From NCBI GenBank assembly GCA_017883185.1, contig JADGOB010000005.1, positions 1,644 to 65,643 of the forward strand: DNA of 64,000 nt, in the 5' to 3' direction. The translations under genes were made by a program, and so were the position numbers. Source of the stretch: Acidobacteriota bacterium (lineage in GTDB: Bacteria > Acidobacteriota > Vicinamibacteria > Vicinamibacterales > Fen-181). Under the pieces are notes generated by a model that was given only the letters and a program-made list of their open reading frames with translations, was not told where the DNA came from and made no database searches. Of this stretch, positions 29,917 to 44,799 are shown piece by piece; the first letter of the stretch is position 1, and each line of letters starts with the position of its first letter.

Positions 29917-30510
29917 CTAAGGCTCGAGCCCTTGTGTCTTGAGCCCCTCGGTGAACCGTTGTCCTTCCCGGTCCGCCAGGATCCGGACGGGATGGAACCC
30001 GGCTGCCTCGAGCAGTTTCGCCGACCCTCCCTCCGCCCGGAAGGCATCCAGGCCCGCGGGCCGGGTGCGAACCAGGCCGAAGAACTTCGGGGCCTGGCCC
30101 TCCACGATCACGACCCGCCCGCCAACCCGGAGGGCGCGGTGCACCGACCTGAGGAGGTTGGCGCGCCCGGTCGCGTCGAGGCCCGACAGGAGGGTGGGCC
30201 CGGCATCCAGGACGGCAACGTCGAACTCGCCATCCCCTACTGGGAGGGTGGGGAGCGCACCACGCTCCACGTCCATCAGCACGCCGCCGCTGGCCGCCGC
30301 CGCCTCAACCCGGGCAGCGGCCGCCTCCGAGCCCACGACGGCGCAGCTCCGGCCTGTCAGGCCTGCCTCGGCCGCCAGTTGCGCGAACAGCTCGACGTCA
30401 TCGCCAACGAGCAGTTGTCGTTCGCCCATCCGAACGGCGGTCATCGCGACGGCCAGCGCGTGAGGTCCCGAGCGGTCGCGGTCGAAGAGGAAGTCGCGGA
30501 AGCTGGACAT
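29917..30510 (-). CDS. class I SAM-methyltransferase-like protein (degenerate motif I)
   Basis: Real part of ORF 29917..30654, from MSSFRDF. The segment FDVAVLDAGPTLL...LRSVHRALRVGGRVVIVEG resembles the Methyltransf_11 post-I/II region. Confidence 0.5.
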   Translation of the reverse strand: MSSFRDFLFDRDRSGPHALAVAMTAVRMGERQLLVGDDVELFAQLAAEAGLTGRSCAVVGSEAAAARVEAAAASGGVLMDVERGALPTLPVGDGEFDVAVLDAGPTLLSGLDATGRANLLRSVHRALRVGGRVVIVEGQAPKFFGLVRTRPAGLDAFRAEGGSAKLLEAAGFHPVRILADREGQRFTEGLKTQGLEP

Positions 30511-30580: not shown

Positions 30581-30648
30581 AGACAGATTCCAGGGGGGCT
30601 TACAGAAACGTGCTTCAAAGATGACGATCTCAGCCCTGGAAGATGTCT
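30581..30648 (+). promoter_or_regulatory. 68-nt inverted-repeat-bounded conserved element, copy A
   Basis: 57 of 69 hand-aligned columns are identical to 41781-41848. The ends AGACAGATTCCAGGG / CCCTGGAAGATGTCT pair at 13 of 15 positions. It ends 30 nt before the GTG start at 30679. Confidence 0.6.
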
Positions 30649-30678
30649 AGACAACCGCTCATGATATAGTTCTTACCC

Positions 30679-31992
30679 GTGAAACAACCAGCCGAAATCG
30701 CCCCGTCTCAGGGAAAACTCGGAATCCTGCTCGTCGGCCTCGGGGCCGTCAGCACGACGTTCATTGCAGGCGTCATGGCGGTTCGCAAGGGGATCGCGCG
30801 CCCAATCGGCTCGCTGACGCAGATGGGCACGATCCGTCTGGGCAAGCGCACCGACGGGCGCACGCCCCTCATCAAGGATCTCATGCCGCTGGCCTCGCTC
30901 GACGACATCGTGTTCGGCGGGTGGGACATCTTCGACGACAACTGCTACGAGGCCGCGACGACCGCGGGCGTCCTCGAGCCGTCGCTGCTCACGCAGATCA
31001 AGCCGGAGCTCGAGGCCATCAAGCCAATGTCGGCGGTGTTCGACCGCCACTACGTCAAGCGCCTGGACGGACCGAACGTCAAGACGGGCGCCAATAAGAT
31101 GGAATTGGCCGAGCAGGTGCGCGCCGATATCCGCCGGTTCAAGCAGGAGAACATGCTGGATCGCCTCGTCATGATCTGGTGCGGCAGCACCGAGATCTTC
31201 ATGGTCGAGAACGAGGCGCACCAGTCGATCGAGGCGTTCGAGAAGGCGCTGCAGCGCAGCGACGTGAGCATCCCGTCGAGCATGGTCTATGCCTACGCCG
31301 CGCTGAAGGAAGGCATCCCGTACGCCAACGGCGCGCCGAACCTCACCGTGGATATCCCGGCCCTGATGGAGTTGGCTCAGCAGAACGGATCGCCGGTTAC
31401 CGGCAAGGACTTCAAGACCGGCCAGACCCTGATCAAGACGGTCATCGCGCCCGGTCTGAAGGCGCGCCTGATCGGCATCAAGGGCTGGTACTCGACCAAC
31501 ATCCTGGGCAACCGCGACGGCGAGGTGCTCGACGATCCCGAGTCGTTCAAGACGAAGGAAGAGAGCAAGAAGTCGGTTCTCGACTACATCCTGCAGCCTG
31601 ACCTGTACCCCGAACTCTACAAGGACCTTTGTCACATCGTGCGGATCAACTACTACCCGCCGCGGGGTGACAACAAGGAAGGCTGGGACAATATCGACCT
31701 CGTCGGGTGGCTCGGCTACCCGATGCAGTTGAAGATCAACTTCCTTTGCCGCGACTCGATTCTCGCGGCGCCGATCGTGCTGGACGTGGTGCTGTTCCTC
31801 GACATGGCGGCGCGCGCGGGCCTGAGTGGCATCCAGGAGTGGCTGTCGTTCTACTTCAAGAGCCCGATGCACGCGCGCGGCCTCTACCCGGAGCACGACC
31901 TGTTCATTCAGATGATGAAGCTGAAGAACACGTTGCGATTCCTCAGGGGCGAGGAACTGATCACGCACCTCGGACACGAGTACTACGACTAG
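30679..31992 (+). CDS. ino1: inositol-3-phosphate synthase (MIPS)
   Basis: 437 aa. It has LGILLVGLGAVSTTFIAG (NAD-binding N-terminus), ANGAPN, TGKDFKTGQT and WYSTNILGNRDG, as in bacterial/archaeal MIPS. Confidence 0.9.
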   Translation: MKQPAEIAPSQGKLGILLVGLGAVSTTFIAGVMAVRKGIARPIGSLTQMGTIRLGKRTDGRTPLIKDLMPLASLDDIVFGGWDIFDDNCYEAATTAGVLEPSLLTQIKPELEAIKPMSAVFDRHYVKRLDGPNVKTGANKMELAEQVRADIRRFKQENMLDRLVMIWCGSTEIFMVENEAHQSIEAFEKALQRSDVSIPSSMVYAYAALKEGIPYANGAPNLTVDIPALMELAQQNGSPVTGKDFKTGQTLIKTVIAPGLKARLIGIKGWYSTNILGNRDGEVLDDPESFKTKEESKKSVLDYILQPDLYPELYKDLCHIVRINYYPPRGDNKEGWDNIDLVGWLGYPMQLKINFLCRDSILAAPIVLDVVLFLDMAARAGLSGIQEWLSFYFKSPMHARGLYPEHDLFIQMMKLKNTLRFLRGEELITHLGHEYYD

Positions 31993-35328: not shown

Positions 35329-35393
35329 CCCGCCTTCGCCGCGGGGCGGCTACGGCGTGGCCCGCCCGCCTTCGCCACGGGGCGGCGACGGCG
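35329..35393. repeat. two 29-bp direct repeats (period 36) in the oppD-like/padR divergent region
   Basis: CCCGCCTTCGCCGCGGGGCGGCTACGGCG (35329-35357) and CCCGCCTTCGCCACGGGGCGGCGACGGCG (35365-35393) differ at 2 positions. Confidence 0.7.
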
Positions 35394-35443
35394 CGGCGTT
35401 CGCAGGCTGGCGGCAGTGAGGCGCGTGTCGCTGAAGAGGTAGA

Positions 35444-35480
35444 CATCCTACAGCCCTGGATGTAGGATGCCTACATCCTA
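35444..35480. promoter_or_regulatory. candidate PadR operator (three 9-bp half-sites)
   Basis: CATCCTACA (35444-52), its perfect inverted copy TGTAGGATG (35461-69), and TACATCCTA (35472-80), which abuts the padR ATG. It contains an ATGT...ACAT arrangement. Confidence 0.45.
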
Positions 35481-41566: not shown

Positions 41567-41780
41567 GTCTCCAAAGAGAGATCCACTTTTTTGGAGCACC
41601 GCTCCATCGAGTTGGAGCAGGGCTGAATCTTTCTTTCGCTAGTTGACGATAAATGGCTTATCGCCGATATCTTGCAGGCACCTCGGAGGACGGAAGCCGT
41701 GGTACGCCGATTGCTACCTCGACGACCTGACCCGGCCGAGCGGAACCAAAGAGGCGTGGCCGGTCAACCGGCCGCGTCTA

Positions 41781-41848
41781 AGACAGATTCCAGGGACCCC
41801 ACAGAAAATTGCTTCAACCGTGAAGATCTCAGCCCTGGAAGGATGTCT
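41781..41848 (+). promoter_or_regulatory. 68-nt inverted-repeat-bounded conserved element, copy B
   Basis: AGACAGATTCCAGGG ACCCCACAGAAAATTGCTTCAACCGTGAAGATCTCAG CCCTGGAAGGATGTCT. It ends 17 nt before the ATG at 41866. Confidence 0.6.
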
Positions 41849-41865: not shown

Positions 41866-44799
41866 ATGAACAAGCAGTGGAACACGGCAGCCGCCAAGTC
41901 CGGACTCCGGTGGCGCTGGCCCGGTTGGGCGGCGGTCACGCCGGCGTTGCTGACCGTTGCCATTACGGCCATCCTTCTCTCCCTCGGCCTGGCCAACATC
42001 GTCATCCGGGCCACCTGGCACGAGGCCGACGACGGGGTGTTGTGGGTGAGCCGCGTGGAGGGCGTGACGGCGTTCGACGTGGCGCCGGGGACGCCCGCGG
42101 ATCGGGCCGGAATCAGGGCGGGCGACCTCCTCGAGGCGATTGACGGGCAGTACGTCGAGCGGCCGTCGGACGTCGCGGACCTGCTCCACCGCGCAAAGGA
42201 AGGGCAGCCGGTCAATTACCGGGTGCTGCGGCTTGGTACCGCCGAAGCCTTCGATTTCCGTCTCGCATCCGTGCCCCGCGGCAACACCAGCCTCTACCTC
42301 GTGCTCGCGCCGGTGGGCCTGTTCACCCTGCTCGTCGGCGCGGCCGTCCGGTTGCGTCGGCCCAGCCACCCGGCCACGCTGCACTTCCTCTGGCTTGCCG
42401 GGGCGTTCTTCGGGTGGACCGTGTTCTCGTTCAGTGGTCGCCTGGACCGGCTCGACTGGCTGTTCTACTGGTGTGACGCCGGGGCGGTCCTGCTGTTGCC
42501 GCCGCTGTTCCTGCACTTCACGTTTTTCTTTCCGGAACGCCCCCGCACCTGGGTGATCACGCCGCTCGGAAGCCGCTTCTGGCCGCTGATCTACCTGCCG
42601 GCGTTGCTGCTGGGCGCGACACGGGTCATCGCGATTGGCAGGGCGGCGCAGGACGAGCAGTTCTACATTAACGGCATCGTCGAGGCGCTGGACCGGTTCG
42701 AGCCGCTCTACCTGTCCATCTACCTGGCGGCCGGTCTCGTGGTCATGGCTACCGCCTTCCGCGAGGTGCGCACCGTGACCGCGCGGCGCCAGTTGCGCTG
42801 GATCGCGTGGGGCACGGCGCTCGGCGGCCTTCCGTTCGTGTTCGGGTACGCGCTGCCGTACGCGGTTGGCATCAACGGGTCGCTGCCGATGGACCTGTCG
42901 GCCATCCCGCTCAGCCTGATCCCGCTGACGTTCGCCTGCGCCATCGTGCGATACCGGCTGGCGGACGTCGAGGTGATCGTCAAGCGGGCGATGGTGTGGG
43001 CGGCGGCGTTGACGGCGATCGCGGCGATCTACGCGGTGCTGCTGCGTGTGGCCGGCTGGATCTTCCTCGAGGACTCGCACCAGCACAACTCGGTGATCGC
43101 GGTGCTGGCGACGCTCGTCGTGGTGCTGGTCGCACGGCCGCTGAAGAACGCCATCCAGGCCACATTCGACCGCGCGTTCTATCGCGACCGCTACGACTAC
43201 CGCCGGGCGCTCGTGGGTTTCGCGCGCGACCTCAGCTCGGACCTCGATCTCTACCGCCTCGGCGATCGGATTGTTGCGCGGGTCACCGAGACGCTGCTCG
43301 TGGACCGCATGTCCCTCCTCCTTGCCGAGGAGCGGACGGCCGAGTTCGTGGCCATCAGGTCGGCAGGGCTCTCGGGCGAGCCGGCGCGGCTCGGCCGCAA
43401 CTCCGCGCTTGGCGCGCGGGTGTCGGCGGGGGTCGCGGTGGCGATGGACGACCCGACGACTACGCACGGCATCCCGGTCGGGGAGCTCGAGCCGTGGCGC
43501 GACCGGGAGTTGTATTACTTCGTCCCGTGCGTCTCGAAGGAGACGACGATTGCGGTGCTGGCCCTCGGGCGCAAGCCGCACGACGAGCCGCTCAACTCAG
43601 AGGACCTGGCGCTGCTGGCAGCGGTCGCCGGCCAGGCGGCGACGGCGCTGGAGAACGGTCGCCTCTATCGACAGCTCCACGTGAAGGCTGAAGAGTTAGG
43701 GCGGATGCGCGAGTTCAACGAGAGCATCCTGGAATCGCTGGACGCCGGCCTGGCCGTGGTGGACGTGCACGACCGGGTGATCCGGTGGAACCGCGCGCTG
43801 GAGACGACCCATGGCGCCGCGCGGGCTGAGGCCGTGGGCCGGACCCTGGGCGAGTTGTTCGGCGCGGCGTTCGTGACAGCGGTGAGGGCCGCGCGCCAGC
43901 AGTCGCTGCGGGGCGGCACGTTCTACCGCTTTCCGCTGGCCACCCGGACGCCGGGCGATAACCGCACGCTCGTCAACATCACCACCGTTCCGCTCCAGTC
44001 GCTCGCCGGCAGCGGCGCGGCGGACACCGGCACGGTCATCATCGTGGACGATGTGACGGCGCGGGCGCAGCTCGAAGAGCAGCTGCAGATCTCGGACAAG
44101 ATGGCGTCGATCGGGCTGCTCGCCGCTGGCGTGGCGCACGAGGTGAACACGCCGCTGACCGGCATCTCGAGCTTCACGCAGATGCTGCTCGACGGGGCCG
44201 ACCCGCAGGATCCGAAGACACGCCTCCTCGAGAAGATCGAGCGCCAGACGTTCCGCGCGGCCAAGATCGTCAACGGTCTCTTGAACCTGTCGCGCCCGGC
44301 GACCGCGGCGCCCGAGCGCGCGCCCGTGGATCTGAACGTCGTCGTCAACGACGTCCTGTCGCTCCTCGAGCACCAGTTCAAGATCTCGCGGATCCAGATT
44401 CGTCGCGAGATGGCCTCCCCTGGTCCCGTGGTGATGGGCGCCGAGTTCAAGCTGCAGCAGGTGTTCCTGAACCTGTTCATCAACGCGCGCGACGCGATGC
44501 CGAAGGGCGGCTGGCTGTCGATCGCGACGCGGGTGGTGGACGGCACCGCCGTCGTCGAGGTGGGCGATACCGGGGGTGGCATCCCGAGTGAGTGTCTCGC
44601 CCGCATCTACGACCCGTTCTTCACGACCAAGACGATAGGCCAGGGCACGGGGCTCGGCCTGTCGATCACCTACGGCATCGTGCGGGAGCACGATGGTACG
44701 ATTGCGTGCGACAGCGAGGTGGGGATCGGCACCCGCTTCACGCTGTCGTTCCAGGTGGCGGCCGTCTCGGCGGTCCCACGGTCGGGCCGCGCCGGCTGA
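41866..44799 (+). CDS. hybrid-architecture sensor histidine kinase: TM-PDZ-multiTM-GAF-PAS-HisKA-HATPase_c
   Basis: PDZ-like segment GTPADRAGIRAGDLLEAIDG, followed by about 8 hydrophobic helices. GAF-like region around VDRMSLLLAEE and PAS-like ILESLDAGLAVVDVHDRVIRWN. H-box is GVAHEVNTPLT (NtrB/AtoS type), with DTGGGIP and GTGLGLSI. Confidence 0.9.
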   Translation: MNKQWNTAAAKSGLRWRWPGWAAVTPALLTVAITAILLSLGLANIVIRATWHEADDGVLWVSRVEGVTAFDVAPGTPADRAGIRAGDLLEAIDGQYVERPSDVADLLHRAKEGQPVNYRVLRLGTAEAFDFRLASVPRGNTSLYLVLAPVGLFTLLVGAAVRLRRPSHPATLHFLWLAGAFFGWTVFSFSGRLDRLDWLFYWCDAGAVLLLPPLFLHFTFFFPERPRTWVITPLGSRFWPLIYLPALLLGATRVIAIGRAAQDEQFYINGIVEALDRFEPLYLSIYLAAGLVVMATAFREVRTVTARRQLRWIAWGTALGGLPFVFGYALPYAVGINGSLPMDLSAIPLSLIPLTFACAIVRYRLADVEVIVKRAMVWAAALTAIAAIYAVLLRVAGWIFLEDSHQHNSVIAVLATLVVVLVARPLKNAIQATFDRAFYRDRYDYRRALVGFARDLSSDLDLYRLGDRIVARVTETLLVDRMSLLLAEERTAEFVAIRSAGLSGEPARLGRNSALGARVSAGVAVAMDDPTTTHGIPVGELEPWRDRELYYFVPCVSKETTIAVLALGRKPHDEPLNSEDLALLAAVAGQAATALENGRLYRQLHVKAEELGRMREFNESILESLDAGLAVVDVHDRVIRWNRALETTHGAARAEAVGRTLGELFGAAFVTAVRAARQQSLRGGTFYRFPLATRTPGDNRTLVNITTVPLQSLAGSGAADTGTVIIVDDVTARAQLEEQLQISDKMASIGLLAAGVAHEVNTPLTGISSFTQMLLDGADPQDPKTRLLEKIERQTFRAAKIVNGLLNLSRPATAAPERAPVDLNVVVNDVLSLLEHQFKISRIQIRREMASPGPVVMGAEFKLQQVFLNLFINARDAMPKGGWLSIATRVVDGTAVVEVGDTGGGIPSECLARIYDPFFTTKTIGQGTGLGLSITYGIVREHDGTIACDSEVGIGTRFTLSFQVAAVSAVPRSGRAG

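Follow-up and report, generated by a model that had tools for sequence, protein, structure and literature searches.

A short hairpin repeat of Vicinamibacterales-type Acidobacteria, probably a non-autonomous mobile element associated with CTAG/TA sites

The window analysed here is a stretch of 64,000 nucleotides from contig JADGOB010000005.1 of an Acidobacteriota bacterium (assembly GCA_017883185.1, positions 1,644 to 65,643 of the forward strand). It contains two copies, A and B, of a 68-nt hairpin repeat, the first located upstream of a gene for inositol-3-phosphate synthase (MIPS) and the second upstream of a gene for a sensor histidine kinase. The repeats, their landmarks and the two downstream genes are as follows (positions are those of the window; REP, repetitive extragenic palindrome).

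30581..30648, plus strand: copy A of the 68-nt hairpin repeat, subfamily 1; arms at 30581-30595 and 30634-30648
30605-30618, plus strand: apical motif of copy A, GAAACGTGCTTCAA
30644-30650, plus strand: right junction of copy A, ATGTC-TA-G
30679..31992, plus strand: MIPS gene, 437 aa, GTG start
41751..41780, plus strand: GC-rich, REP-like hairpin GAGGCGTGGCCGGTCAACCGGCCGCGTCTA, directly abutting the 5' side of copy B
41778-41780, plus strand: left junction of copy B, C-TA; the right-hand TA has decayed to TC
41781..41848, plus strand: copy B of the same 68-nt repeat; arms at 41781-41795 and 41834-41848
41804-41817, plus strand: apical motif of copy B, GAAAATTGCTTCAA
41866..44799, plus strand: gene encoding a 977-aa PDZ/GAF/PAS sensor histidine kinase; the next gene in orthologs is that of a sigma-54 activator

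A preliminary description of this DNA had reported the 68-nt pair, and our analysis bears it out. With a hidden Markov model (HMM) built from the two sequences both copies were retrieved at E ~1e-20, whereas the next-best match in the 64-kb window had E = 0.94; the window therefore holds exactly two copies, and their similarity is far beyond chance. The number of identical alignment columns, previously counted by hand as 57 of 69, is 56 of 69 when the copies are aligned with MAFFT. As described earlier, the 15-nt termini (AGACAGATTCCAGGG and CCCTGGAAGATGTCT) are inverted relative to each other and in both copies comprise 5 bp, a GA/GA mismatch and 8 bp. On the plus strand both copies fold into closed hairpins (−23.5 kcal/mol and z = −2.8 for copy A; −21.3 kcal/mol and z = −2.6 for copy B), and the fold of the minus strand is less distinctive (z = −1.9 and −1.6, respectively). 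The G+C content of the element, as read off the sequences, is ~50%, compared to 66.8% across the window. The distances to the start codons were also confirmed, with 30 nt separating the end of copy A from the GTG at 30679 and 17 nt separating the end of copy B from the ATG at 41866. Unlike copy B and most members of the family described below, copy A is not preceded by an intact GC-rich hairpin.

The headline of the preliminary description was that the 68-mer could represent a leader RNA or a shared operator. As a cis-regulatory leader RNA (a riboswitch-like or protein-bound hairpin) it would control the genes downstream, and the two window copies taken by themselves fit such a role: each is found a short distance ahead of a start codon, on the sense strand, and their plus-strand fold is more stable than that of shuffled controls (z about −2.7). 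The comparison to Rfam advised in the same description does not favour this interpretation, as the 68-mer had no match in Rfam 15 at the gathering score and nothing relevant was found at E values up to 10; a match to PYLIS_3 (E = 9.6) was taken as noise.

In order to find further copies, a pattern derived from the arms was scanned over one genome per species. This resulted in 26 loci, of which 16 share the pattern only and were taken as chance matches, and 10 are true copies with the same interior. All 10 are found on 9 contigs of a single metagenome-assembled genome (MAG), "Acidobacteria bacterium GL140_5_metabinner_95" (JANYLG01). An eleventh copy with one arm mismatch was recovered from the same MAG using its companion hairpin and the HMM; the MAG is fragmentary and carries at least 11 copies. 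The same kind of scan over metagenome contigs yielded at least 119 loci, and an nhmmer search of all collected DNA produced 162 matches, which include at least 132 distinct full copies. The counts of context and junctions given below cover the distinct copies among the matches listed (132; 131 for the flanks). The wider search envisaged in the preliminary description, carried out by pattern scans and nhmmer, has thus uncovered a large dispersed family. Judging from the source names of the close homologs of neighbouring proteins, the carriers belong to the Vicinamibacterales (Acidobacteriota), and the family, with well over a hundred copies, is spread in one group of soil and sediment Acidobacteria. 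Viral contigs and plasmids contained no match to it, and targeted literature searching found no description of this hairpin family.

The core unit of the family is ~66 nt long and consists of AGACAGATTCCAGGG, ~38 nt of interior and CCCTGGAAGATGTC, with terminal inverted repeats of 14–15 nt. Two subfamilies could be distinguished, which have in common the arms and the apical motif GAAACTTGCTTCAA and differ in the remaining interior. A more distantly related "cousin" family of the same architecture, in which the arms are altered on both sides (CTTGAAGGGCC and GGCCCTTCAAG), occurs 22 times in the collected loci. The similarity between the two window copies had been said to end exactly at the bounds of the 68-mer; this has to be revised, since the family unit is CTA-AGACAG...ATGTC-TAG.

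The genomic context of the copies was assessed using a simple open reading frame (ORF) picker based on GC3, the G+C content at third codon positions; the stops that it calls are reliable, the starts are not, and only distances to stops were used. Of the 132 copies, 126 are intergenic. Element and right-hand gene share a strand in 49 copies and are on opposite strands in 60, and all four configurations of the neighbouring genes were observed: (−,−) in 33 copies, (+,+) in 19, (+,−) in 17 and (−,+) in 15. The neighbours are ordinary and functionally unrelated genes, including argG/argH, ScpB-like and TetR-like genes, the gene for isocitrate dehydrogenase and many sigma-54 two-component genes. The table of positions and orientations that the preliminary description had called for reveals no preference in orientation, and many copies are located at the 3' ends of genes. 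Given the mixed orientation and the unrelated neighbours, a place before a start codon is not a property of the family, and the position of the window copies ahead of two start codons is incidental. All of these observations speak against a leader RNA that controls downstream genes.

Further evidence comes from orthologous loci with and without the element, for which the following conserved features of the two upstream regions are relevant.

30658..30672, plus strand: block CTCATGATATAGTTC (TGnTATAGT, extended −10-like), 8 nt before the GTG at 30679
41700..41715, plus strand: sigma-54-type promoter TGGTACGCCGATTGCT (GG-N10-GC), invariant alignment columns in four orthologous loci

At the MIPS locus, a MAG ortholog with 98% protein identity and the same gene order is devoid of the element, and the window has 136 extra nt. 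Three further orthologs (90–94% identity) retain parts of the spacer as well as CTCATGATATAGTTC and are likewise without it; the absence of copy A was recorded at the orthologous loci L147–L150. One of these three contains a different palindromic insert at the place of copy A. This unrelated insert of ~100 nt (L149:2798-3000), which includes CCGCCTCCGCGCGCCAGATGTATCTGGCGCGCTACGGCGAGGTCTCGCCGTAGCC, has a gene for an IS110-family transposase 3.5 kb away, and the MIPS spacer seems to attract insertions of hairpins. At another of these loci without the element (L148:2867-3000), GGCTTCAGGGAAGACCTGGACAATCGC is found where the window has the right arm and the flank CCCTGGAAGATGTCTAGACAACCGC; ~18 of the 24 positions match, and the resemblance could be either the remnant of an old copy or due to chance. 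In addition, two tandem versions of the region upstream of MIPS are found on a metagenome contig (L064:1-1676), and only one of them has the 136-nt insert with the element; here the assembly seems to have joined an empty and a filled allele of the same community.

At the kinase locus, both the GC-rich hairpin and the element are absent from three orthologs (83–88% identity; L151–L153), in which the sigma-54 promoter and the start region are kept; the leader is ~150 nt long in the window and ~40 nt in the orthologs. A third case is a PSD1/DUF1553 locus, filled in the MAG (L021) and empty in orthologs at 96% and 81% identity. The filled site reads ...CAC TAG|ACATC...(element, reverse strand)...CTGTCG|TAG|GCCCGG.... 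The 96% ortholog has CAC TGA followed by a 20-nt spacer and the 81% ortholog has CAT TAG GGGTC..., both without the element, and the stop is at the same codon in the filled locus and in the two empty ones. Presence and absence at the three loci argue that the element is quickly gained or lost, on short evolutionary timescales, and that it is dispensable for the adjacent genes. Its absence from the orthologous MIPS and kinase leaders is another point against a leader RNA.

The consensus of the flanks is CTA on both sides; of 131 copies, 66 have it on the left and 85 on the right, with departures being mostly transitions, and the base following the right-hand CTA is G in 70 of the 85. The junctions can thus be read as C-TA-[AGACAG...ATGTC]-TA-G. 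In 60 copies the right-hand gene converges on the element; the junction TAG is the stop codon of that gene in 27 of them, and in 35 of the 60 the element is no more than 30 nt from the stop. At the filled PSD1 locus the core is bracketed by TAG...TAG, and the junction TAG is at the native stop position. These contacts are strongly one-sided, the right end being involved in 27 cases and the left end in 2. According to the preliminary description, scattered copies that show no bias in orientation or position and are flanked by target-site duplications would imply a mobile element instead of a regulatory RNA. Scattering and the lack of orientation bias were indeed observed, and the flanks resemble such duplications.

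Copies of the repeat are frequently part of mosaics with other hairpin modules. Most copies of subfamily 1, including copy B, are preceded by a GC-rich hairpin, GCGCGGCCGGTCAACCGGCCGCGC, which in a subset carries GTAG at its 5' end; subfamily-2 copies are preceded by GCCCCGAAGGGGC, often together with an extra outer arm. A hairpin module of ~60 nt, designated X, often accompanies the copies. In L037, a 68-mer is followed by an X module and then by a cousin unit, with a single TA inside CTAG between each. The X module of this locus (L037:10760-10816) is a 57-nt hairpin with the ends GCGAGGC/GCCTCGC and has 8 matches, and the cousin unit (L037:10819-10935) is 117 nt long, is composed of a GC hairpin and the arms AGGTCTTGAAGGGCC/GGCCCTTCAAGACCTC, and has 22 matches, 11 per strand. 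X or cousin modules adjoin 68-mer copies, again across a single TA within CTAG, also in L118, L124, L046, L034, L047, L114 and L123.

Table 1 of PMC2577343, citing Tenzen and Ohtsubo 1991, gives for IS630 a 2-bp duplication at CTAG. Junctions of the C-TA...TA-G type and modules separated by TA are what a duplication of TA at CTAG would produce. We therefore propose that a transposase supplied in trans would insert the element at the TA of CTAG and duplicate the TA. In a genome of 67% G+C, CTAG would be expected mainly where a codon ending in C meets a TAG stop, which would explain the pile-up of copies at stop codons. The stop would survive the insertion, as TA+G at one end and as TA+A at the other, and the right end would restore CTAG, so that more modules could insert alongside and mosaics could grow. 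Under this model copy A would have landed between two divergent genes, closely upstream of the −10-like block of MIPS, and copy B, with its GC-rich hairpin, in the 5' leader of the kinase operon downstream of the sigma-54 promoter. Effects on expression, such as those of leader hairpins on mRNA stability or translation, would then be side effects of insertion and would not reflect regulation common to the two copies.

The mosaics also bring to mind REPs and REPINs. According to that explanation, a CTAG-tagged stem-loop would be spread as single-stranded DNA by an HUH tyrosine transposase of the REP-associated (RAYT) or terminal inverted repeat (TIR)-associated (TIRYT) type, with no target duplication; the actual REP would be the GTAG-tagged GC-rich hairpin, to which the 68-mer would be joined as a further stem-loop. 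The presence of GTAG right before the GC-rich hairpin in a subset of subfamily-1 copies, the mosaics resembling bacterial interspersed mosaic elements (BIMEs), the many copies directly downstream of stop codons and the failure to detect a variable target duplication are all consistent with it. Furthermore, REP units (GTAG) of Pseudomonas adjoin unrelated stem-loops, and a distinct group of TIR-associated tyrosine transposases is found in Acidobacteria (Di Nocera et al. 2013, PMC3733652), which is again in line with such a relationship. However, the 68-mer is longer than a REP (20–40 nt) and carries CTAG in place of a GTAG or CGTC tag, so that it falls itself outside the REP definition. When E. 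coli RayT was compared by phmmer to six-frame ORFs from ~1.1 Mb of collected DNA, the best match had E = 2.2, although a single-sequence query on this limited sample has low sensitivity. Duplication of TA is also the simpler explanation for the symmetric C-TA...TA-G junctions and for the separation of modules by TA. We consider this kind of REP-like spread unlikely.

Taken together, the data make it probable that the 68-mer is a non-autonomous hairpin miniature inverted-repeat transposable element (MITE) and belongs to an undescribed CTAG/TA-associated family in Vicinamibacterales-type Acidobacteria. A mobile hairpin of the MITE or REP type was the third candidate of the preliminary description, and it is the one favoured by the copy number, the mixed orientation, the presence or absence at orthologous loci and the TA/CTAG junctions, to which the intergenic location and the sharing of stop codons can be added. 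The presumed transposition chemistry and partner enzyme would be those of the model above.

Several observations weigh against this interpretation. None of the three loci provides a nucleotide-clean empty site, as the spacers differ otherwise too, and an all-against-all blastn comparison of the collected loci for clean empty sites returned other indels unrelated to the repeat. The duplication of TA at CTAG is deduced from the junctions rather than directly observed. A permutation test for matching variable 3-mers on the two flanks revealed no excess (P = 0.34); a variable 3-bp target duplication, considered on the basis of CTC/CTC and CTG/CTG flanks in the MAG, was abandoned on this result and replaced by the fixed TA/CTAG model. 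The negative outcome is uninformative if the target is fixed, and the flanking CTA could equally be part of the element. The 27:2 asymmetry of stop-codon contacts is not predicted by simple insertion in random orientation; it may reflect companion modules that occupy the left side. No full-length insertion sequence (IS) bounded by these arms was found in the ~1.1 Mb of collected DNA, where no arm pairs were spaced 250–5000 nt apart, and no transposase gene recurs among the neighbour genes of the collected loci. ORFs between oppositely oriented copies are ordinary genes, and the only large recurrent family of neighbours is that of sigma-54 regulators and kinases; an apparently gene-free gap in L020, considered as a possible transposase site, turned out to be argH. 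Since the arms were set by the search patterns, the breadth of the family and the variation of its arms are under-sampled. Finally, subfamilies that are otherwise different have both kept the apical loop and the asymmetric GA/GA mismatch, and this suggests a constraint beyond the recognition of terminal repeats.

The hairpin itself is real: across 126 aligned copies, all of which have the arms in common, 89% of the hairpin cells are paired, compared to 30–45% when the partners are slid. Compensatory change, on the other hand, is not above background, with 32 cells changed on both sides against 19–42 in the slid-partner controls, and RNAalifold detected no covariation in the family alignment. 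One inner pair of subfamily 2 is T-A in 70 copies, C-G in 10 and mismatched in 3, a switch that may have happened once and then been inherited. The arms, being fixed by the search patterns, are uninformative on compensatory change, and in the few copies found by the HMM only, arm changes are mostly uncompensated or wobble. In the pair tables, where the copies are not mutually independent, G-T pairs on the plus strand exceed A-C mismatches, which hints that the plus-strand hairpin matters, either as RNA or as single-stranded DNA. This excess, together with the conserved apical loop and the tandem G-A motif, is what a leader RNA would be expected to display; the lack of covariation and the control-level compensatory change point the other way. 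The element contains no conserved ORF, as the GTG start of subfamily 1 is missing from subfamily 2. A tiny ORF, GTG ACG ATC TCA GCC CTG GAA GAT GTC TAG, was dropped because its start is GTC in subfamily 2 and its TAG is not universal.

The conserved loop and mismatch, together with the 27 copies that begin at the stop of a converging gene and nearly all present the same element end, raise another possibility, namely that the host has co-opted a mobile repeat, either past stop codons, where it would stabilise the 3' end of the mRNA or act as a terminator, or as a site bound by one of its own proteins. The known effects of REPs and Correia elements on the stability of mRNA (see PMC3733652) provide a parallel. 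On the other hand, neither strand of either intergenic region in the window has a terminator-like site, there is no T run after the hairpin, the copies are dispensable at three loci, and CTAG targeting alone accounts for the contact with stops. Such co-option is compatible with a MITE origin, and we give it a small chance. Fainter still is the prospect that the hairpin, with its invariant loop GAAACUUGCUUCAA, tandem G-A mismatch and 27:2 stop contacts, serves the host after UAG stops as an RNA or DNA module recognised by a protein or by the ribosome. If so, it would have a role in 3'-end formation, mRNA stabilisation or the control of termination and readthrough, and would occasionally be employed in the 5' leader of a gene, the sensor kinase gene being an example.

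The divergent neighbour of MIPS completes the picture of the upstream regions.

29917..30510, minus strand: divergent gene, ~200 aa, no Pfam match, ATG read at 30510

Copy A resides in the intergenic region between this gene and MIPS. Synonymous changes among MIPS orthologs begin at the GTG, and the ATG of the 421-aa orthologs is CTG in the window; this suggests that MIPS has a GTG start and a nearly leaderless mRNA. Block CTCATGATATAGTTC is kept in all five orthologs, and copy A ends 16 nt before TGnTATAGT. Copy A is therefore probably upstream of the presumed MIPS promoter, or overlaps its −35 position, and would not be in the leader or transcript; a two-hexamer sigma-70 scan returned nothing in the MIPS upstream region. 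The situation of copy B is different. The kinase orthologs keep TGGTAYGCCGNTTGCT, a GG-N10-GC promoter of the sigma-54 type; the site at 41700-41715 is judged to match the sigma-54 consensus, and transcription would presumably start from it. The arrangement suggests an autoregulated sigma-54 two-component operon. Copy B and the GC-rich hairpin, located between this promoter and the ATG, are probably transcribed in the kinase leader, to which they would add two stable hairpins. A sigma-54 promoter inside the element was discarded, the GG/GC spacing being wrong on inspection. For a leader RNA the probable location of copy B within a sigma-54-driven leader is a favourable point, and the location of copy A upstream of the conserved −10-like block is an unfavourable one. 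Taking into account the mixed orientation, the copies at 3' ends, the absence from orthologs, the control-level compensatory change and the negative Rfam result, the leader RNA or shared operator is largely refuted and, in our opinion, very improbable.

Other kinds of element were considered and set aside. Integron attC sites are defined by R''/R' boxes (RYYYAAC/GTTRRRY) and form same-orientation arrays after cassette ORFs; the 68-mer has the termini AGACAG/ATGTCT with no GTT/AAC core, and copies on one contig face both ways. An intrinsic terminator was rejected, as neither intergenic region contains a GC-rich stem-loop with a T run, and a CRISPR on its defining features.

Elsewhere in the window, a GC-rich unit, CCCGCCTTCGCCGCGGGGCGGCTACGGCGTGGC, is present at 35329-35397 in two tandem copies 36 nt apart and is also an inverted repeat; it is possibly a further intergenic repeat of the REP type. 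At 35436-35478, an inverted repeat of 20 nt (GAGGTAGACATCCTACAGCC and GGATGTAGGATGCCTACATC), unrelated to the 68-mer, overlaps the ATG at 35467. The ORF that begins there has the N-terminus MAKSDRYQNRIELLQGTLDFLVLQTLQ, which we presume to be that of a PadR-type regulator, and the repeat is possibly an auto-operator. Between 46775 and 51203 there are three pairs of diverged direct repeats (71–75% identity; spacings of 3595, 3706 and 1199 nt), which suggest tandem paralogous genes.

For the annotation of this region, these results remove a false lead: the two look-alike "leaders" are repeat insertions, not the signal of a regulon. More generally, they point to a compact hairpin repeat family with related modules in a little-studied, mostly uncultured lineage of Acidobacteria. 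The family appears to home to CTAG and hence to TAG stops, with each insertion restoring the stop. Repeats of this kind can break assemblies, be mistaken for RNA motifs and change expression when they land in leaders, as may be the case for copy B downstream of the sigma-54 promoter; they can also be useful as markers of strain-level variation.

Among known systems, the riboswitches and leader RNAs of Rfam resemble the window copies in being ~70 nt long, structured, on the sense strand and just before starts; orientation, position and orthologous loci are not conserved in the case of the 68-mer, which has no Rfam match and no significant covariation. With REPs, REPINs, BIMEs and the TIR repeats of PMC3733652 it shares the nature of an extragenic palindrome, often just past stop codons and in mosaic clusters, with a tetranucleotide tag beside a stem-loop, and the GTAG-tagged GC-rich hairpin adjoins it in some copies. 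It differs from them by its CTAG tag, its greater length and the lack of a detectable RAYT-like gene in the ~1.1 Mb, and its symmetric TA junctions suggest a cut-and-paste DDE mechanism. The closest kinds are the MITEs of the IS630/Tc1-mariner type and, functionally, the Correia elements (CREE/NEMIS) of Neisseria. The 68-mer is unlike the former in being unusually short, in its conserved internal loop and in that neither a cognate IS630-like transposase nor a full-length IS was recovered from the collected loci, the duplication being read from the junctions; it is like them in its short terminal inverted repeats, non-coding sequence and many dispersed copies, as well as in the C-TA-[element]-TA-G junctions, the spacing of modules by a single TA and the presence or absence at individual loci. 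Correia elements are 100–155 bp long, with 26-bp terminal repeats and features for integration host factor (IHF) binding and promoters, and have no sequence similarity to the 68-mer. They are co-transcribed in leaders or 3' regions, where their hairpin can alter the fate of the mRNA, and, like the 68-mer, they are MITEs that form a small hairpin, have TA at both ends and lie near the starts as well as the ends of genes.

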